Origin: Deltaproteobacteria bacterium
GTDB lineage: Bacteria > Desulfobacterota > Dissulfuribacteria > Dissulfuribacterales > QOAL01
DNA: 64,000 bases
Direction: 5' to 3'
Assembly (NCBI GenBank): GCA_027067775.1
Contig: JAMOVK010000149.1
Span: 4,379-68,378 of the forward strand
Every line of letters begins with the position of its first letter. Position 1 is the stretch's first letter. Positions 45,111-63,500 of this stretch are shown in pieces. The notes beneath the pieces were generated by a model, which searched no databases, had not been told where the DNA came from, and saw nothing but the letters and a program-made list of their open reading frames with translations. Position numbers and translations under genes: made by a program.

Positions 45111-46431
45111 AACCAAGGAAGAGTTGATCCTTAGAGGAGAGTTCGTTCTTGCCTCTCCCTTTGAAGAGCCCATAAAAGGCGGGGCGGTAGTAATAAAGAA
45201 AGACCGCATTGTTGAATGCGGCCCATGGACAGATATTGAATCAAAATACCCTGGGGCAAGGCTTTTAGAACGCTCCAGCGGACTGATAGCACCAGGTCTG
45301 ATAAACTGTCATACCCATGCACCCATGGTGCTTCTAAGGGGCATGGCTGACGACCTGCCGCTCAAGACCTGGCTCGAGAAATACATATTTCCTGCAGAGG
45401 CCTGTCTCACCAAAGAAATCGTAAAGACTGCCACCCTTCTTGCCTGTGCTGAAATGATAAGGAGTGGCACCACTACCTTTGTGGACATGTACTTCTTTGA
45501 AAGACAGATGGCCCAGGTTGTTGAACAGGTAGGCCTTAGAGCCTACCTTGGTGAAGGAATATTTGACTTTCCCTCCCCTGCCTTTGAAAACGCAGAAAAG
45601 GTAATGGAGGAGACCAGGGATCTTGTTGTCCATTACAAAGACAATCCACTCATAAACTTTACCGTTGATCCCCACACCCCATACACCTGCAGCTCAAACA
45701 TCCTCGTTGCATCGGCAGAGTTTGCCAGGGCCCACAGGCTTCCCATTGTAACCCATCTTTCCGAGACAAGGTGGGAGTTTGACGAAACCCGCTCCATTCA
45801 CTCAAAAACCCCGGTAAAATACCTTGACGAGCTTGGGCTTCTTGGCCCTGACCTTGTCGCTGTGCACTGTGTGTGGCTTGAAGAGTCTGACATAGACCTT
45901 CTGGCCCAGAAAAATGTAAACGTTGTCCACTGTCCTGAAAGCAACCTGAAGCTAGGCTCTGGCATAAGCCCGCTGGCAAGGCTTCTTGACGCCAGGGTAA
46001 ACGTGGCCCTTGGAACCGACGGGGCTGCAAGTAACAACAATCTTGATATGCTTGGCGAGATGGATGTTGCGGCAAAGTTGCCCAAGGGGATCCTGCAGGA
46101 CCCGTCTGTTGTTACTGCTGAACAGGCAATGTATATGGCAACCGAGGCCGGCGCCAAGGCAATGGGAGCAAAAGATCTTGGAAGGCTTGAACCTGGATTT
46201 CAGGCGGATCTTATTGTCATCGATCTTGATCGGCCACATCTGAGACCTTGCTACAATCCTGTATCACAAATGGTTTACTCTGCCACTGGTGGCGATGTAT
46301 CAGATGTAATGGTGGCTGGAAAGTTCGTAATGGAAAAGGGCAGACTTGTCACGATAGACGAAGAAAAACTGCTGTCACAGATCAGATCTTTCCAGAATCA
46401 GCCATTTTGGCAAGAAGGGCCTTGTAGCTGA
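45094..46431 (+). CDS. mtaD: amidohydrolase, 5-methylthioadenosine/S-adenosylhomocysteine deaminase-like
   Basis: ..PGLINCHTHAPM.LLRG.ADD.PL..WL.. and ..HLSET.., ..VHCV.., ..LGTDGAASNN.. match the MtaD/guanine-deaminase-class layout. Confidence 0.8.
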   Translation: MKTMNETKEELILRGEFVLASPFEEPIKGGAVVIKKDRIVECGPWTDIESKYPGARLLERSSGLIAPGLINCHTHAPMVLLRGMADDLPLKTWLEKYIFPAEACLTKEIVKTATLLACAEMIRSGTTTFVDMYFFERQMAQVVEQVGLRAYLGEGIFDFPSPAFENAEKVMEETRDLVVHYKDNPLINFTVDPHTPYTCSSNILVASAEFARAHRLPIVTHLSETRWEFDETRSIHSKTPVKYLDELGLLGPDLVAVHCVWLEESDIDLLAQKNVNVVHCPESNLKLGSGISPLARLLDARVNVALGTDGAASNNNLDMLGEMDVAAKLPKGILQDPSVVTAEQAMYMATEAGAKAMGAKDLGRLEPGFQADLIVIDLDRPHLRPCYNPVSQMVYSATGGDVSDVMVAGKFVMEKGRLVTIDEEKLLSQIRSFQNQPFWQEGPCS

Positions 46432-47176
46432 TACCGGCCTGCTTAAAACCCTGCCGTCCAAAGTGTATATTTGCCTCAAAGATCAGGGGCCCCCTGTCTG
46501 ACATACAGATATCAAAACCAGCATGATCAATGGAACAGCGTTCTGCTGCCAATAGGGCAAGATCTACAGCCTGCCCTGGCACATTATGAAAATCAATGCA
46601 TGCACCTTGGGCCACGTTTGTTTTGAACTCGTCTCCTGCAGCCTTCTTCCAATAAGAGAGAACCGCCTCCCTGCCTATAACTACTACACGGATATCTTTG
46701 TCCACAGGGATATACTCCTGGATATAGGCAACAGATACCAGATCTAAATAGCTCTCAAGGACCTGCTCGTTCCTAATCAGGTACACCCCCTGCCCCCTTG
46801 ATGAACCAACAGGGATCTTTGCCACAAAGGGAAAGGAAAAGTGGTCAAGGATCTCTTCCTTTTTATCAGGACCTGTAAAGAGCCTGGTGCAAGGTATAGA
46901 AATGGAGGCTGCCTCAAAGGTCTGGAGTTGGCGGATCTTGTTTCCAAGAAGCAGGTAGCTTGAAAGGCTTGGAAAAATCTCTTTTCCTGTACATGAAAAA
47001 ACAGGGGCGTAGTGTAGGGTTGGGAAATAGATCCTCTTTGCATCTCTTATCAAGCATCTTTCTTCTTCGAGATAATCAGACCAGTTATATCTAAGCGGAA
47101 TACAGCGTACAGAAGAGGCCTTTAGAAGTTTTGAACCAAGGCAGACTTTATTATTATCGGATCGGGGTTCTGTCAT
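46382..47176 (-). CDS. ATP-grasp domain protein (RimK-like ligase family)
   Basis: 264 aa. ..FPFVAKIPVGSSRGQGVYLI.., ..YIQEYIP..KDIRVVVIG.., ..GFDI......PLIFEAN.. is the ATP-grasp pattern. Last gene of the 51817->46382 operon. Confidence 0.7.
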   Translation of the reverse strand: MTEPRSDNNKVCLGSKLLKASSVRCIPLRYNWSDYLEEERCLIRDAKRIYFPTLHYAPVFSCTGKEIFPSLSSYLLLGNKIRQLQTFEAASISIPCTRLFTGPDKKEEILDHFSFPFVAKIPVGSSRGQGVYLIRNEQVLESYLDLVSVAYIQEYIPVDKDIRVVVIGREAVLSYWKKAAGDEFKTNVAQGACIDFHNVPGQAVDLALLAAERCSIDHAGFDICMSDRGPLIFEANIHFGRQGFKQAGISYKALLAKMADSGKI

Positions 47177-47211
47177 TTAATCTGTTAAAACCATTAACTT
47201 TCTCTACTTAA

Positions 47212-49497
47212 TCAAAGAAGTCTTTCAAGCTCCACCTTCACCTGTTGAATTACATTATTGGTTGTATTTGACGTGGACAATCTAAAAATTTTGGCTGTTG
47301 GATACCAGGATGATTCAGAGCCGTGAACAGGCCAGCACCAATGACTTTGACCCTTGATCAGGATCCATACAGGTATTCCCAAGCCCCCAGCCAGATGTAC
47401 TACAGGACAATCAATAGTGATTACCAGATCAAGCTGCGTAATAAAGGCCGCCATATGCGCAAGATTGACCATTTTACGATCTAGAGGTTCCATTCCACAT
47501 TCTCCAGCCATCTTCTCGTGGACAGGATTTGACAGGCTTTGAAGACCAAAAAAATCGATCCCTTCTAAACTTGTTAATGGAATAAAATCTTCTAGACCAA
47601 ATGGCTGGAATAATGAACTTTCATTAGACCAAAAAAGTCCGACCTTCAATTCCCCATGTCCTTTAATAGGGGAAACCGCCACCTCTGATGGCACCTTTAG
47701 GTAAGGTGGTCTTTCTCCTGCATCTGGAACCAAAGGGTCAAATATAGATTTAAGACATGGAAGTCTCAACAAAGGACAGTAAACATCAAACTCATGGTCA
47801 TGAATATTAAACGGCAACCGGGCCAAAGAAACTCCAGGAACCTCTTCCATAAGAACCTGGAGCGGTTCTGGTGATGCTATTATCAAATGTTCACAAAGTT
47901 GAGATACAACAGAAAAAAGCCTGGCTAAAACTATGGCGTCTTGAATGCTTTGCTCCAGATGGATCAGCAGTTTCTTCCTGCCAAGGGCCTCACCAGACCA
48001 GATGGGATTCAAAGAATTAAATGCCTGAAAACCGGCCGTTTTTCTCCGCCACTGATATTCTTTCCAGCCCTGGCGGAACCTTCCAAGGCGCAGTAAAAGC
48101 CTGCCTTTGGCATAGTGGGCTGCAGCATAACCCCTGTCTGCCTCTAGAGCCCTGTCATAAAATTCAAGTGCCCTGTTATACTGTTCAAGCTCTACAAAAC
48201 AGTTTCCAAGAAGCAGACAGGCACTGGCATTTTCTGGATTATCTCTGTAGACCTTTTCCAAGATGTCAACAGCCTCTTCCCAATTGCCAAGGGCTGCTAA
48301 CGTATCTCCAAGAATATATGCGGCCCTGGTGTTATGAGGAGCCATCTTGAGTAACACCTTTAGCTTCTCTGCAGCATCCCGCAGCTTTCCATCCCTACGA
48401 AGAACAATGGCCTCATTAATCCTTGCCTCATCCGGGTCCTGTTGGGCCAAATCCTTGAGAGCCTCCTTTGGCAAAGAATATGACGTTCTTACAAGTGGAT
48501 CAGCAACATCTAAAATTACAGGGTTCTTCCATGGCAAAATCTCAACTGCAAAAATCTCATGAACCCCTGCATCAAACTGCAACCACCCAAGAACATTGCC
48601 CTTTCTCAAATCTACCAACCAAATACCACAAAAACGTTCTGAAAAACGTTTTGTCAGCGGAAGTCCTGAAAATACTGCAGTCTCTCTGACCCTAGAAAGT
48701 CCAATCAGGGCATAAGGCCCTACGAATGATATCCCCCTGCAGAAACCAGGAACTTCAGCAACAGTTTCTGATTTGCCATCTTCAGGATTTACAGTGATGA
48801 TCTTGCCTGTACCAGACTCAAGTACATAGAGCTTACCATTATACCATCGGGGAGAATGTGGCATGGAAAGACCTCTGCGGATTATTCGACCAGTTTCTAT
48901 ATCCACCAGGATTCCTCCAGAGGTCTTTGTCTCTCTCCATCCTCCAGGTGTATCAGCCTCTCCAAGGGCTGTAACGTAAGCAGGCCTCCCATCTCGCATG
49001 GCTATACCATTTAGATGGCACCTGTCACTCAAGTCATAGGCGCTAATGAAAGGAGGCCTCCATCGTGGCACTACACTATGTTCATGGTCTAAAGTACACA
49101 GACAGGACATTCGCGTATTTAAAAACCACAGTTCCCCTTCACTATCAAAAGCCATTTCGTGAATATCTATGTCTCCAGTTATATGTAACCTTCGGGGAAT
49201 AAAACATGCATCGTGACAGGTGGCAGAATCTACCTTAGAGGCCACATCTGGCATATTAAAATAGTCCCAGATCTGATATCCGGTCCCTACGGATAGTCTT
49301 GCTCCATTTGCTGCCATGCCCATTGGTTTTGACATGGCCACAAAATGGGTATTAAGCACCCTACCAGGCCTGAGAAGTATTAGCCTGCCTGCCTGATATG
49401 TGGAAATCAAGACAGAAACCCCTGCCTTAAGCAGAAATTCATTAAAGACAGGGGTATATTTGCTAGAAAAATTTGCTTGAGAGGGATGATTAGCCAT
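47212..49497 (-). CDS. three-part fusion: TIGR03032/DUF4915-like N-terminal domain + TPR repeats + GT9-like (heptosyltransferase-fold) C-terminal domain
   Basis: The N-terminal ~340 aa (..ISTYQAGRL..., ..HEMAFD..G.LWF.NT..SCL.., ..DRCHLNG.A...G.P.YVTA.., ..[19 protein letters not shown]..) match my memory of the uncharacterised TIGR03032 family. The middle has TPR-like repeats (..[14 protein letters not shown]...). The C-terminus ..[28 protein letters not shown]....[10 protein letters not shown] has the GT9-like pattern. The ATG overlaps the stop of the upstream surface-protein gene (gATGGCTAA). Confidence 0.7.
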
Positions 49498-51817
49498 CCT
49501 CAGACATTTTCTTTTTCTGTCTGAAAAAGACTGCTCCCAGCAACATAAGGCCTATCATTGATATCTTTTTACCCAGACCAGATACGGTTGGCACGCCAAT
49601 AATTGCATTTGCCTCTGTTCTGTCCTCATTGCCTGGAGCCGTCGGGTCATCGCTCAGAACACTATGTTGTCGATCATCTGAGCCAATATTCCCATCGTCA
49701 TCCGCGTCCCAGTATCCTGTTGCCTGATTGTAGACCGATGTTACACCATCTCTTACTGTGGTTTTAAATGTAATAACTACTTCATTAGAGGCACTGTTTT
49801 CATCTGTTGCACCAGGATCGGGAGCTATTCTGCCCTCCCAGACAACCATATTGTTTGCAGCATCATATTCACACCGGGACGTAACCGACGCTCCCTGCGG
49901 AATGCATTGTAAACTTCCGCTAATATAAGTTAATTCTGGTTGGACAGGATCTTCTACAAGAACATGTTCAGCATCTGCGTTGCTGTTATTTATCCATACC
50001 ATTTTCCATTCTATTTCTGGCCAACCGGCAGGATCAACCACCTTGATTGCAAAAGGCGGATCAAATACCCGGGGTGCTCGATTGATTGTCAGGCTCACAC
50101 GGGCCGTATCGCAGTCTCCATTGGAATCACAGATCTGGTATTCTAGCTTGTCATCGCCAAAGTAGTCGGGATCAGGGGTGTATTCTATATAATCGTCAGT
50201 AGGATCGTCTGGCGTACCACTGTCTTTTACTTCTGCCGTACCGTGTTGAGGACCCGCGGTGATTGTAATGGTCCCGTTGGAAGCTCCATCTCCTCCAAAA
50301 TCATCGTTGGCCGTTACAGGTATATCTACAGGGGTATCCTCATCGGTAGACGCCACATCGTCGCTGGCAGAAGGCAGATCATTGATTGGCCTGATCGTCA
50401 GGCTCACATGGGCCGTATCGCAGTCTCCATTGGAATCACACAATCTATACTCAAAAACATCTTTGCCATTATAGTTGGCATCTGGCGTATAAGTGATGGT
50501 ATCGTCAGTAGGATCATCTGGTGTGCCTTTATCATTTACTACTGCCGTACCATGAGACGGGTTGGTGGTCACGCTGAGTTTCCCTCGTGGGCCATCCCCT
50601 GTAAAATCATTATTGAGGACGCTCACCTCAACTGGGGTATCCTCATCCGTCTGAGCAGTATCATCAGCAGCATTAGGTAGCTGGTTTTCAAAGGCTCCGA
50701 TATCACATGCAACCGTACCGTCTCCATTTCCATCTATCGGTCTTAAAACATCTCTCTGGTCTGTTGTTACACTAACAGGAGCCTTGGTACAGTTTCCTGC
50801 AGCGTCAATTGCATCAGAGCCAGGAAGAAGGGCATGAGTTTTAGTAAGACCTCCGTTGTCTCTAAGATTGGTATCAAGGTTTAGATTGCCACTTGTAGCT
50901 ACTCCATTGCAACTGGCGTCTCCAAACCAGTTATTGCCCATATCATAAATAGAATTATAATTCACGGGAGCACAGTTTCCAACTCCACCCGTATTTTCAG
51001 CTACTATCGAATTCCATATCTTTAGATAGTCTTCATTATATACACCACTTGCACTTTTTGAATCATTCCCGTTTGATTTATTATGGGTAATGGTTGAATG
51101 TATTATATAACCATAAACATCGTAGCCATTACTGACGCCTCCACCTTTTTGTGCCGTATTGCCTGAAACAGTGGAATTTATAAGCTTGAATAATCCAAAG
51201 GTATCTGTACCAATACCTCCTCCCGTCTGGGCCTCATTTCCAGTAATGGTTGAGCTAATGATAGTTAAAGAACTTCCATCATAATGACCAACACCTCCTC
51301 CAATCCAGTGTGCCGTATTACCGGTTACAGTACAATTTATTATTGTGGTGTTGCTCGAACCAGTATTCACAACACCACCACCTATATGGGCTGCACCACC
51401 TTTAATTGTCATATTGTCAAGTATAAGGTCTCCATTACTTTTGGTCGTAAAAATACGAAATTCTGACGCATTTGAATCTCTTTCTACAGTAGCCCCATTT
51501 CCCTGAATGGTGATCTGCGATGTAATGGCAGGAAGTTCGGAAGTAAGGGTAATTGTACTGTATCCTGGCAATACTATGGTGTCTGCACCATTACCGGCGA
51601 CACATCCTCCTGTGGCAGTATCGCTGTTGGCTGATGTAATTGCATCCGCCAAGGTACAGCTGGCATTGTCTACGGTAATAGTTGCAGCTGTTGTTGTGTT
51701 TGCCGCTGCCAGAGAAAAAGCCGCTGCTGCAAGCATTCCTTTGCCAACCTTGCCTAAAGATCTTCTCTTTTTTCTTCTTTTGACCTTTTTGCGCTTTAGC
51801 GACTCCCTTTTAGTCAT
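49490..51817 (-). CDS. large secreted surface protein: right-handed beta-helix (Pmp-repeat/choice-of-anchor-type) + 2 cadherin/Ig-like repeats + DUF11-like domain + C-terminal TM/basic sorting tail
   Basis: Start taken at ATG 51817, which has AAGGAG upstream; the track TTG start is at 51847. Signal peptide ..[17 protein letters not shown](V/I)..N beta-helix repeats (..[14 protein letters not shown].., ..[16 protein letters not shown].., ..[16 protein letters not shown]..). Two 103-aa repeats [27 protein letters not shown]-terminus [29 protein letters not shown]. Confidence 0.75.
50080..50700 (-). repeat. tandem ~309-bp (103-codon) intragenic repeat, two units
   Basis: tcaggctcaca(c/t)gggccgtatcgcagtctccattggaatcaca occurs at 50089 and again at 50398 (period 309 bp). 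The encoded units are the cadherin/Ig-like repeats of the surface protein. Confidence 0.85.
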
Positions 51818-52133
51818 TACTCCTTCTCCCTTCGTCCTGGCAAACAACGACCCAAAGGAGGTTGGTTTTTCAGAATTGCTGTCCCCTGAAAAGAAACAAT
51901 GTAGTACCCAAAAAGTAGTCGTTTTTGCCGTGAATAAAGCTATAGATCTTTATGTTACTTGCCCATCACTAAAATACCCACCGAGTTCTTTAAAAATAAA
52001 CAGCTCCTTTTTATGCGCAGCAAGAGCTTCATTCCTTAATATTCAAGGGTACCATTGTCAATATATAAATGGGAAAGGGGAAAATACAGCCATCTCCAAA
52101 GCAAACAATCCCAATAACAGTGAATAGAACTTT

Positions 52134-53426
52134 CTAAGCGTTTCTGAGTATCTTGGAAGGATCTATGCTGGCTGCCTGTCTTGCCGGATATATGGTTGCA
52201 AGTATACAGATAACAAGGGCAGAGGCAGCAATTATAACAACGTCTGAACTGTAAAGAAGAATTGGTATACTGTCTGTATAGTAAACCTCTTTTGGAATTT
52301 TAATAAACTTATACCTCTTTAACAGCCAGCAAAGTCCTATTCCACCACAAACACCCAGAAAAGTGCCCATTATTCCTATCATGGTGCCGTTTAACATGAA
52401 GATTCGTAATATTTGGCTATTGGTAGCGCCCATGGCCTTAAGTATGGCTATATCCGCTTTTTTCTCCATCACCATCATTGAAAGGGTACTAATGATGTTA
52501 AAGGCTGCAACCAGGACTATGAGTGTAAGAACAACAAACATGGCAAACTTCTCTAGCTCCATTGCAGAAAAAAGATTCCTGCTCATCTGCTGCCAGTCCA
52601 TTATCCAGAAAGGATAGCCAAGAAGTCTCTGAAGAGCCTTTACAAAACGGTCTGCCGCATAGATGTCAGATATCTTCACCTCAAAGGCATGCACCTTGTT
52701 ACCAATGCCAAGAAGCCTTTGGGCAGCCCCTATTGGCATGAATGCCAGGGACATGTCATACTCATACATGCCCATTGTCTGAACACCAATAACCTTTACG
52801 GTCCTGATCTTGGGCATCATGCCAACAGGAGTTATGGTTCCGCTTGGCATTACTATACGAATGTAATCTCCTGCCTGAACTCCAAGGGTGAGGGCAAGCT
52901 CCTTGCCTATAAGGATGGGGGCAGGCCCATCTGAAGGATATTCAGAAAAGCCCTCCACGCCCTTTCCTTGCAGCACCTTGCCAAAGGTTATCACCTTTTT
53001 GACGCTTTCAGGGTCCACTCCCCTTATGGCCACACCGCTGACTGCCCTGCCTGAGCTTAAAAGGGCCTGAATGTAAACTACTGGCGTGGCTGCGACCACA
53101 TGAGGCCTGGAGCCTTGACCCCTAAGCCTGGATAGAATCCCGGAAATCCCTCCCTCTGGCTCTACAATGGTCCCTTCTATCTGCCTTTTTAGCTGCTTCA
53201 CGGAGTCAAAAGGCCCTTCATAACTCCTAATAAGCAGATGGGCATTCACCCCAAGAATTTTTTCCTTGAGATGGTTTTCAAAACCTGCCATCACCGCAAT
53301 GACGACAATAAGGGCCATTACCCCTACGGCAACACCACCAGTTGATATTACAGAGATGAGAGAGATGAACTTGTGCTGTTTTTTTGCCCTCAGATACCTG
53401 AGGGCCATGTAGAGTTCATATCTCAT
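52134..53426 (-). CDS. lipoprotein-releasing ABC transporter permease (LolC/LolE family)
   Basis: MRYELYMALRYLRAKK..FISLISVIS..GVAVGV.ALIVV..VM.GF is the FtsX-like LolC/E N-terminus. There are four TM helices and a large periplasmic loop. Confidence 0.85.
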   Translation of the reverse strand: MRYELYMALRYLRAKKQHKFISLISVISTGGVAVGVMALIVVIAVMAGFENHLKEKILGVNAHLLIRSYEGPFDSVKQLKRQIEGTIVEPEGGISGILSRLRGQGSRPHVVAATPVVYIQALLSSGRAVSGVAIRGVDPESVKKVITFGKVLQGKGVEGFSEYPSDGPAPILIGKELALTLGVQAGDYIRIVMPSGTITPVGMMPKIRTVKVIGVQTMGMYEYDMSLAFMPIGAAQRLLGIGNKVHAFEVKISDIYAADRFVKALQRLLGYPFWIMDWQQMSRNLFSAMELEKFAMFVVLTLIVLVAAFNIISTLSMMVMEKKADIAILKAMGATNSQILRIFMLNGTMIGIMGTFLGVCGGIGLCWLLKRYKFIKIPKEVYYTDSIPILLYSSDVVIIAASALVICILATIYPARQAASIDPSKILRNA

Positions 53427-53443: not shown

Positions 53444-54943
53444 CTAAGATGCAGTACGCCTGCCACTTTCTGGACGAAGCTGTGGGAAAAAGATGACATC
53501 CCTAATGGAAGGCGAATCTGTAAACAGCATAACAAGCCTGTCAACGCCTATACCTTCACCCGCCGCCGGAGGCATGCCTATTTCCAAGGCCCTGACATAG
53601 TCGTAATCCACCTCTGGTGGAATCTCTTCGTCATCTCCCCTCTTGGCAACCTGCTCTTCAAAGCGCGCCCGTTGATCCCGGGGATCGTTGAGTTCTGAAA
53701 ATGCGTTTGCTATTTCCCTGCCGCTGATAAAAAGCTCAAACCTGTCCGTTACGCTCGGGTCCTCAGCGTTTCTTCTTGCAAGCGGGGATATGTCCGTAGG
53801 ATAGTGGGTTATAAAGGTTGGCTGTATAAGCTTTGGCTCAACCAGTAGATCAAAAAGCTTGGTGAGATACTTGCCAAGAACAAGGTCCTTTCCCATCTCC
53901 ACTCCAAGCTCTTCCAGCCTTTTGTTAAGGGCCTCCCTGTTGTCAAGCTCCTCCTCTGGAATGCCACCCACCTCTACCAAAGACTGTCTAAGGGTCATTC
54001 TTTTCCACGGGGGAGTCATGTCTATTTCATGCCCTTGATACTCAAACCTGGTGTCATCCTTTATGTCCAGGGCTATCTGGGCGAAAAGCTCCTCTGTGCG
54101 AACCATAAGGTCTTCGTAGGTTGCATAGGCCTCGTAGAACTCCAGCATCGTGAACTCGGGATTGTGCTGCAGAGAGATACCCTCGTTCCTGAAGTTTCTG
54201 TTTAGTTCAAAGACCCGGTCAAAGCCTCCAACCAAAAGCCTTTTTAGATAAAGCTCGGGGGCGATTCTCATGTAAAGATCTATTCCCAGGGCATTGTGAT
54301 GGGTTACAAAGGGCCTTGCCGTCGCCCCTCCCACAATTGACTGCATCATGGGAGTCTCAACCTCCAGAAAACCGTTGGAGGTAAAATAGTGTCTCAGCAT
54401 CTGGATAATTCTCGCTCTGGCACGAAAGGTCTCTGCCACCTCATCGTTCATGATCAGGTCTTCGTAACGCCTTCTGTAACGAAGTTCCTTGTCTTTGATA
54501 CCGTGGTATTTTTCCGGAAGCGGTCTCATGGACTTGGTGACAAGCCTTATCCTATCCGCCTCTATGGTAAGCTCGTTGGTCTTGGTGCGAAAAAGGCGGC
54601 CCTCCACCTCTACAATGTCCCCAATGTCAAACTTTTTAAAGATCTTATAGGCATCTTTTCCTATACGGTCCCGCATTACATGAACCTGGATGGAACCGGA
54701 GCTGTCCTTGAGACTGAAAAAGGCCGCCTTGCCAAACCGTCTAAGGGCCATTATCCGGCCTGCCACCCTAAAGGTATCTTCTACCTTTTTAAGGGCTTCT
54801 GCATCATAATCTTCGTATACCTTTTTTATTGCTCCGGCCTTTTCCGGGGTGCTCACATCGTTTGGAAAAAGGTTTATTCCCAGCCTTTCAAGTTCCTCAG
54901 CCTTTTGCCTGCGCTGTCTGATTATCTGACTTTCTTCACTCAA
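53444..54943 (-). CDS. lysS: lysine--tRNA ligase (class II)
   Basis: ..FRNEG.S..HNPEFT.LE.Y.., ..GG.GIG.DRLVM... Start proposed at TTG 54943 (M/LSEESQIIRQRRQKAEEL..), which has GAGGAG 9 nt upstream and gives ~499 aa. ATG 54997 and the track start 55051 are alternatives. Confidence 0.9.
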   Translation of the reverse strand: MSEESQIIRQRRQKAEELERLGINLFPNDVSTPEKAGAIKKVYEDYDAEALKKVEDTFRVAGRIMALRRFGKAAFFSLKDSSGSIQVHVMRDRIGKDAYKIFKKFDIGDIVEVEGRLFRTKTNELTIEADRIRLVTKSMRPLPEKYHGIKDKELRYRRRYEDLIMNDEVAETFRARARIIQMLRHYFTSNGFLEVETPMMQSIVGGATARPFVTHHNALGIDLYMRIAPELYLKRLLVGGFDRVFELNRNFRNEGISLQHNPEFTMLEFYEAYATYEDLMVRTEELFAQIALDIKDDTRFEYQGHEIDMTPPWKRMTLRQSLVEVGGIPEEELDNREALNKRLEELGVEMGKDLVLGKYLTKLFDLLVEPKLIQPTFITHYPTDISPLARRNAEDPSVTDRFELFISGREIANAFSELNDPRDQRARFEEQVAKRGDDEEIPPEVDYDYVRALEIGMPPAAGEGIGVDRLVMLFTDSPSIRDVIFFPQLRPESGRRTAS

Positions 54944-55080
54944 TTTGCAAAACTCCTCAAATATTTCTATGTGCTTGAAACATGCATCAAAATCCATCTG
55001 TGACAGCTTGCAATTCTTAGTGTACTCTTTAAATGGAGTCAAGTTTCCCAAAATATAAGGACAACAGTTTGAGTCTTAGA

Positions 55081-63425: not shown

Positions 63426-63500
<75 letters not shown>

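Follow-up and report, generated by a model that had tools for sequence, protein, structure and literature searches.

Three co-oriented genes on the minus strand of the window (the whole stretch of Deltaproteobacteria DNA that was analysed, 64,000 nucleotides) raise the question of whether they act as one system. They encode a secreted surface protein, here called the adhesin, a fusion protein that starts with a TIGR03032 (DUF4915) domain, and an ATP-grasp enzyme (Table 1). An earlier interpretation made from the DNA alone (the sequence-only reading) had taken them for a three-gene operon devoted to modification of the adhesin. Our analysis points to a different answer, which we regard as about evenly balanced between right and wrong: the locus would consist of two unrelated units joined by an insertion, and the cytoplasmic fusion protein would modify, and probably glycosylate, the surface protein that is encoded beside it. 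The layout itself was as previously described, with three minus-strand open reading frames (ORFs), a stop/start overlap, a 35-nt spacer and a 286-bp gap. The adhesin stop and the fusion start share ATGGCTAA (read gaggATGGCTAAtc, 49490-49497), which gives an overlap of 8 nt, the spacer between the fusion stop and the ATP-grasp ATG occupies 47177-47211, and a Shine-Dalgarno-like GGAGAAGGAG stands 5' of the adhesin start at 51817. The gap had also been called promoter-like, a label that is an unproven guess, as a promoter/terminator consensus scan of the region gave no signal exceeding the shuffled background. An Rfam scan of the window found no match at the locus or in this 286-bp leader.

The evidence that ties the adhesin to the fusion protein comes from other genomes. 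A neighbourhood set of 79 genomic loci with a DUF4915 gene was assembled, the neighbouring genes were clustered all-against-all, and adhesin residues 1-385 were searched against the set by BLAST/jackhmmer. One real recurrent neighbour family was found, and it consists of homologues of this part of the adhesin, i.e. beta-helix proteins of the choice-of-anchor Q (CAQ) type, which are present in 41 of the 79 loci. Within 400 bp of the DUF4915 gene lie 39 of the 64 CAQ homologue ORFs, distributed over ~32-34 loci, with 24 of them co-oriented and two overlap cases doubtful. After correction for flank length, the CAQ density is 0.645 per kb at distances up to 400 bp and 0.008 per kb at 4-10 kb, an excess of ~80-fold. 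The loci belong to Gammaproteobacteria, Cyanobacteria, Chloroflexota, Planctomycetota, Binatia and others. The CAQ model NF041518 scored above its cutoff in nine of nine DUF4915 neighbours tested, some of which carry CSLREA N-termini or PEP-CTERM tails. In two homologues of the fusion, P0005 (56% identity) and P0006 (55%), a CAQ gene lies 5-8 bp upstream, and its product has the MTKRES(I/L)K N-terminus of the adhesin and a tail made of GVPAPAMSLGG, a transmembrane (TM) segment and RRRK. The tight coupling of the surface-protein and fusion genes that had been proposed is therefore supported both by the overlap in the window and by the recurrence of the pairing in about half of the 79 loci. That the two genes are neighbours by chance is barely credible: the closest homologues of either gene are unlinked, but the excess of CAQ genes next to DUF4915 genes extends across phyla, and the overlap in the window is matched by the very short gaps in relatives.

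Several of these loci have their own peculiarities. At L045:1205-2929, in a metagenome-assembled genome (MAG) of Wenzhouxiangella, a single 574-aa ORF encodes DUF4915 followed in frame by a CAQ domain (…LADNGGLTLTHLPQPGSPAIDAAGDC…DQRGATRPQEDACDMGAVE), and two origins come into question for it: a Rosetta-stone fusion of the partners, or adjacent genes run together by a deletion or an assembly error. In L023 and L026 (6.5-17 kb; MAGs of Proteobacteria and Binatia), a gene for a DUF4915-TPR-glycosyltransferase (GT) protein is placed among five co-oriented CAQ paralogues, two upstream and three downstream, which looks like one modifier serving an array of paralogues. Upstream of the fusion homologue P0003 (L167:668-1210), the neighbour is a 180-aa secreted protein that is not a beta-helix and has a PEP-CTERM-like tail, VPVPGASVLLLSGLVGLVAMGTRRNK.

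The ATP-grasp gene has other partners. Its product scored 86.4 bits against PF08443 (cutoff 21) and 93.9 bits against TIGR00768, which is below the cutoff of 143.4, and its best NCBIfam similarities are to RimK, LysX and MptN, so we assign it to RimK at the family level only. It differs from RimK ligases in its short length and in being kept after lysS and a permease gene, with no substrate seen. Its orthologues in four related lineages (71, 65, 55 and 48% identity) are located directly after lysS and the FtsX/MacB_PCD permease gene, 2-50 bp from the permease gene, with no 286-bp leader, adhesin or fusion between. The NfeD-UDG-VanZ genes upstream of these loci are the same as in the window, as is, in the two closest relatives, the convergent amidohydrolase-MTAP-nth-lptFG-rmlDB block downstream. 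In the junction alignment, the permease stop and the ATP-grasp start bracket an extra 4,957 bp in the window (47177-52133), which contain the leader, the adhesin and the fusion and nothing else. Because the orthologues in four lineages directly follow lysS and the permease and the pair is absent, the adhesin and fusion genes are, judged by synteny, an apparent insertion into an older lysS-permease-ATP-grasp operon. No direct or inverted repeats were found at the ends of the insert, and hence no mobile-element mechanism can be named. Loss of the pair in the relatives was considered in place of gain; it is disfavoured by its absence from all four lineages and by the unrelated contexts in which the nearest homologues of the fusion are situated. 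With gain or loss alike, the conserved partners of the ATP-grasp gene are lysS and the permease.

The sequence-only reading had assigned the ATP-grasp enzyme to the system as a third member, which would ligate amino acids or peptides onto the adhesin while the fusion protein glycosylates it. Co-orientation and the 35-nt distance to the fusion gene, with no terminator-like site between, make co-transcription likely. The synteny in the four lineages nevertheless in effect refutes the proposal, which we consider highly improbable. Among the recurrent neighbours of the 79 DUF4915 loci there was no ATP-grasp gene (two weak matches lay ~6 kb off, both in cyanobacteria), none was present in 80 CAQ loci, and none was found near the closest fusion homologues that have an adjacent beta-helix gene, so that close relatives possess the pair without it. 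The gene-neighbourhood comparison thus bore out co-occurrence of CAQ beta-helix genes with TIGR03032 and not that of ATP-grasp genes, and conserved linkage of all three genes was not found in other genomes. The ATP-grasp gene is a bystander, the last gene of an older operon, without a dedicated role in the module. The locus illustrates the risk of reading an operon from a single genome, in which a neat third gene can be a bystander created by insertion.

The adhesin begins with a very basic signal-like N-terminus and a CSLREA-like motif, followed by the beta-helix, the CAQ domain, repeats, a DUF11-like region and a C-terminal tail. The CAQ domain is located at the end of the beta-helix (NF041518, residues 317-378, 61.6 bits; cutoff 25), and residues 378-590 form two Big_9/cadherin-like repeats, visible in the DNA as a 309-nt tandem duplication. 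A profile of the N-terminal 385 residues and their relatives matched the beta-helix of RbtA (9CDU) with an E of 5e-16 and weakly touched alginate lyase (E 0.02). The C-terminus (window 49493-49612) has the layout of a motif, a hydrophobic TM helix and a basic cluster, as judged by eye. When it was compared with the sorting-signal models PEP-CTERM, VPLPA-CTERM, IPTL-CTERM, GlyGly-CTERM and LPXTG, no model matched; the closest was LPXTG_anchor, under its cutoff (E 0.12-0.29), and the tails of the CAQ partners of the two close relatives of the fusion, in L168 and L083, likewise matched none of the sorting models. The earlier description as a CTERM-tailed beta-helix/cadherin protein is thus upheld for the tail layout, the CAQ domain and the two Big_9 repeats, and not for a match to a known CTERM model. 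A similar tail is found in the adhesin, L168:159-1628 and L083:4654-5271 (GVP-x-x-x-SLGG, ~17 hydrophobic residues and an R/K cluster), and it may represent a candidate unclassified CTERM class. No autotransporter beta-barrel or translocator domain was found in domain scans of the adhesin. Tat export of the RR-rich N-termini was dropped as an explanation, since the adhesin and its relatives match no Tat-signal model.

Many CAQ neighbours of DUF4915 (L039, L065, L023, L026, L051, L053 and L046; columns ~100-290 of the broad beta-helix alignment A6) have a conserved N-terminal extension of 60-80 aa, which precedes the hydrophobic signal segment and follows the pattern '..LAAW..', 'RFA..Y..L..LPRR.RR.L.R.L..SLAGAALLLAL...A.AATITV'. 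It could be a leader that is recognised by a cytoplasmic partner. The n-region of the adhesin is unusually basic and lacks this extension.

The fusion protein scored 388.7 bits against TIGR03032 (cutoff 251.5; DUF4915 E 1.4e-118) and 396 bits against PF16261 (35), the latter match running from residue 18 to 328 and from position 3 to 315 of the 316 in the profile. Together with the TPR match and the PF08443 score of the ATP-grasp enzyme, these profile results confirm the corresponding domain assignments of the sequence-only reading. The AF2 model of the DUF4915 domain is a six-bladed beta-propeller (pLDDT 91.4, pTM 0.90), and the N-terminus of the protein is built into the propeller fold, so the fusion is without a signal peptide. 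Comparison with the PDB gave generic propellers alone (Kelch and YWTD, TM-score ~0.5) and no specific solved relative. DUF4915 homologues are ~60% identical across phyla and share dozens of invariant His, Asp, Cys, Arg and Glu residues, among them H113/E114, H161 and H214/R217 of the propeller. The model of the remaining part (pLDDT 93.5) has eight TPR helices and, C-terminal to them, two Rossmann-like lobes, and its best Foldseek matches in the PDB are SPINDLY (7y4i), bacterial OGT (5djs) and human OGT, with E from 1e-11 to 1e-9. A search of the PDB with the full-length fusion profile was swamped by TPR matches. The C-lobe has a weak candidate for the GT9-type donor motif, whose consensus is V-D-T/S-x-x-x-H-L-x-x-A-L-x-x-P, and hhalign aligned this candidate with E. 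coli WaaC (probability 64%, E 6.7e-5) and WaaF (69%, E 4.5e-5). No GT41 match (PF13844) was found in the fusion, and hhalign of its C-terminal domain with the GT41 domain of P0313 gave a probability of 0.1%. The invariant Asp520, Asp690 and His701 of the GT domain are retained in the window fusion, with Asp520 as a candidate base of the GT.

DUF4915 is a large family, comprising 1,048 clusters at 50% identity (E ≤ 1e-30). The ~760-aa DUF4915-TPR-GT layout is widespread, with 1,495 matches at E ≤ 1e-10, and the best 120 of these are near full length (query coverage 94-100%, 43-66% identity). In 60 multidomain DUF4915 representatives, the partner domains were Sulfotransfer_3 (21), TPR (~18), Asp_Arg_Hydrox, an Asp/Asn beta-hydroxylase (12), GT41 (8, best E 6e-103), GT2 (4) and GNAT (3). 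The architectures seen include hydroxylase-sulfotransferase-DUF4915, DUF4915-GT2-TPR, DUF4915-TPR-GT9like-GT4 and DUF4915-TPR-GT41. The pattern is one of a constant propeller combined with interchangeable group-transfer enzymes, several of them from families that act on proteins. Since the transfer domains are interchangeable and the one conserved neighbour is a secreted protein, the evidence points to post-translational tailoring of that protein. The earlier proposal that the fusion is a dedicated modifier of the adhesin-like protein, plausibly a glycosyltransferase, is supported by the recurrent pairing and by such DUF4915 fusions, those with GT41 included.

More generally, and with less confidence than we place in the reading of the locus itself, we tentatively suggest that a widespread and undescribed modification system for CAQ beta-helix surface proteins is built around DUF4915/TIGR03032, which recruits interchangeable tailoring domains. 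The propeller would recognise an element of the precursor, such as the CAQ domain or the N-terminal extension, or would run a new reaction on the precursor. If this is true, a single kind of surface protein would carry sugars, sulfate, hydroxyl groups or acetyl groups depending on the lineage. An orphan family would in this way gain a candidate substrate class in the CAQ beta-helix surface proteins, a fold in the six-bladed propeller and a functional context in its fusion to enzymes that tailor proteins or glycans. As a separate observation, L049, L054, L056 and L078 encode ~1,000-aa three-domain proteins with an Asp/Asn beta-hydroxylase, a sulfotransferase and DUF4915, and at three of these four loci (L049, L054 and L056) very large CAQ proteins of 869-1,941 aa are encoded within ~0.1-0.9 kb. 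A hydroxylate-then-sulfate pathway acting on the CAQ substrate class is conceivable.

For the locus in the window, the favoured reading translates into the following mechanism. The first unit (47212-52133) would provide a Sec-type exported, C-terminally anchored CAQ beta-helix protein, extended by two cadherin-like Ig repeats and translationally coupled to a cytoplasmic TIGR03032 protein with propeller, TPRs and a GT-B domain. The latter would dock on the new surface-protein precursor in the cytoplasm through the TPRs and/or the propeller, and, ahead of export, the GT-B domain would use a nucleotide sugar to glycosylate residues of the beta-helix. The propeller, as the constant part of the family, would recognise the substrate or perform a second catalytic step, and the appended enzyme domain would vary by lineage (GT9-like here, and GT41, GT2, GT4, sulfotransferase, Asp/Asn hydroxylase or GNAT elsewhere). 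The ATP-grasp gene would form the second unit, possibly transcribed now by read-through from the insert. This gives a directly testable hypothesis on how environmental bacteria decorate their surface adhesins.

Several observations weigh against this reading. The C-terminal domain scored 14 bits against the GT9 profile PF01075, below its cutoff of 22 (E 0.032), and a search of the PDB with its sequence profile, with E allowed up to 10, retrieved nothing, not even the solved TibC (4RAP/4RB4). PF01075 is passed by some homologues of the fusion (23.5 bits in L017, and several proteins of the P series). The GT9-like label given earlier is only partly supported, by the GT-B fold, modelled with high confidence, and by the candidate WaaC/WaaF-like motif and not by the profile; GT9-like GT-B in an OGT-like layout is a fair description, and membership in GT9, whose heptosyltransferases use ADP-heptose as donor, is not established. 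The motif INHHRSCP, which starts the C-lobe after 'GLVWAGS' in the gammaproteobacterial and cyanobacterial majority, is missing from a clade of alignment A4 that comprises the window fusion, P0002, P0003, P0004 and P0006 (site at window 47600-47660, fusion residues ~615-635). The corresponding start of the C-lobe in the WaaC structure presumably holds the donor-phosphate-binding lysine, and the missing motif may reflect a change in donor use or a loss of donor binding or activity. The linkage is also incomplete. The closest homologue of the fusion (66%) has purA on one side and a ferredoxin gene on the other, and no fusion gene adjoins the two closest homologues of the adhesin (68% and 62%), which come from one metagenome. 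For a metagenome pattern scan, A6 was too divergent and an alignment of the CAQ domain, A7, was used; of the 39 metagenomic CAQ loci that were 6 kb or longer, only 3 had DUF4915. As the linkage is frequent and not obligatory, it seems that DUF4915 serves as an accessory factor to some members of the beta-helix family, which is much larger. CAQ linkage is at least as frequent for stand-alone DUF4915 (24 of 38) as for fusions (15 of 41), and glycosylation therefore cannot be the common function of the family; the specific relationship must hence reside in the propeller itself, as a recognition module or as an enzyme.

The linkage of stand-alone genes also fits an explanation in which DUF4915 catalyses nothing and serves CAQ precursors in the cytoplasm as a chaperone or targeting factor, and in which the GT domain is degenerate in the window clade, so that the protein merely holds or pilots the adhesin. 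The protein-binding Kelch and YWTD propellers among the best fold matches, the TPRs, which are typical of secretion chaperones, the linkage of stand-alone genes, the missing INHHRSCP of the window clade and the low PF01075 score of the window fusion agree with such a role. The identity of the propeller across phyla and its many invariant polar and charged residues nevertheless suggest an active site rather than a binding surface, all three invariant residues of the GT domain are still in place, and a catalytic pathway is indicated by the repeated joining of DUF4915 to enzymes that look active. We consider a chaperone role quite unlikely.

Beta-helix proteins are often enzymes that act on glycans rather than substrates, which also weighs against the favoured reading and leads to an explanation only slightly less unlikely than a chaperone role: the pair would act on a polysaccharide, with the beta-helix as a secreted glycan-binding or glycan-cleaving enzyme of the lyase or epimerase type and the GT and propeller building or tailoring the glycan. 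PbH1-type beta-helices are typical of polysaccharide lyases, in keeping with the weak alginate lyase match, glycans or lipopolysaccharide are frequent targets of GT9, GT2, GT4 and sulfotransferase domains, and PF05118 also takes in lipid-A hydroxylases. However, no other genes for polysaccharide synthesis or export recur near DUF4915 in the 79 loci, the beta-helix partners bear adhesin-like Ig/cadherin modules and cell-surface sorting tails, TPR plus GT-B layouts and GT41 fusions are hallmarks of protein glycosyltransferases, and the best solved relative, RbtA, is a surface protein and no enzyme.

Modification of the adhesin by the fusion protein, the reading we favour, has parallels in known systems. 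In TibC/TibA and Aah/AIDA-I (bacterial autotransporter heptosyltransferases, BAHT), a cytoplasmic WaaC-like GT-B enzyme is encoded beside its beta-helix adhesin substrate (PMC4358343). In the window, too, a beta-helix adhesin is encoded beside a putative dedicated modifier with a predicted GT-B domain that partly resembles WaaC, but the GT of the window has no sequence match to TibC, the enzyme has TPRs and a DUF4915 propeller, neither of which is found in BAHTs, and the adhesin is not an autotransporter and has a C-terminal TM tail instead. HMW1C is a cytoplasmic GT41 glycosyltransferase that is encoded with the beta-helix adhesin HMW1 and acts before secretion (PMC2877744, PMC3983070, PMC4550697). 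The adjacency of a cytoplasmic GT and a beta-helix adhesin is common to HMW1C/NGT and the window, and other DUF4915 proteins bear GT41; the window GT, in contrast, has no sequence similarity to GT41, the secretion route is another one, and HMW1C has no propeller. In FlmG, a TPR half binds flagellins and a GT-B half transfers the sugar (PMC7591256). The TPR-then-GT-B layout of the window fusion is like that of OGT, SPINDLY and FlmG, the first two being its best structural matches, but the fusion has an extra N-terminal propeller and a GT9-like donor lobe instead of a GT41 one, and its proposed substrate is a secreted beta-helix protein as opposed to flagellin or nucleocytoplasmic proteins. RbtA (Rhombotarget A) is a surface protein of Acinetobacter baumannii whose beta-helix has been solved (PDB 9CDU/9CDV; PMC12643943). 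The adhesin shares with it and with other choice-of-anchor/CSLREA proteins the beta-helix, an N-terminal Cys motif and a C-terminal tail of the sorting type, but the tail of RbtA is of the GlyGly-CTERM class and that of the adhesin fits no known class. A literature search for DUF4915 or TIGR03032 found no paper mentioning either, and the titles and abstract openings of papers on choice-of-anchor, CSLREA or rhombotarget proteins suggested no link to DUF4915. The module works like known pairs of an adhesin and a dedicated glycosyltransferase and belongs to none of them, and its two-gene core is a genuine association that is apparently undescribed.

Table 1. Features of the locus, with positions in the window
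Feature	Position	Strand	Remarks
Secreted surface protein (adhesin) gene	49490..51817	-	775 aa; ORF 49490-51847, ATG at 51817
Beta-helix and CAQ portion of adhesin	50684..51676	-	residues ~48-378; homologues are the conserved DUF4915 neighbours
TIGR03032 fusion gene	47212-49497	-	761 aa
DUF4915/TIGR03032 domain	48463..49497	-	fusion residues 1-345; six-bladed beta-propeller model
TPR segment	48043..48462	-	fusion residues 346-485; eight helices
GT-B (two-lobed Rossmann-like) domain, weak GT9-type C-lobe motif	47215..48042	-	fusion residues 486-761
RimK-family (predicted) ATP-grasp gene	46382-47176	-	264 aa
Non-coding leader of the apparently inserted pair	51848..52133	-	286 bp; between permease stop and adhesin ORF
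FtsX/MacB_PCD permease gene	52134-53426	-	ancestral operon, upstream of insertion
lysS (lysyl-tRNA synthetase)	53444-55051	-	ancestral operon, upstream of insertion

Further observations concern the surroundings of the pair. The only Rfam match in the window is a tRNA gene at 63426-63497, far from the locus. The order lysS, FtsX/MacB_PCD permease and short RimK-like ATP-grasp (257-265 aa) is found in at least five related genomes (L084, L085, L086, L170 and L171). In the window, the ATP-grasp gene and the amidohydrolase gene converge and have ~50 nt in common at their 3' ends (46382-46431), and a comparable 3' overlap of ~38-50 nt is present in relatives, for example at 6725-6774 of L084.

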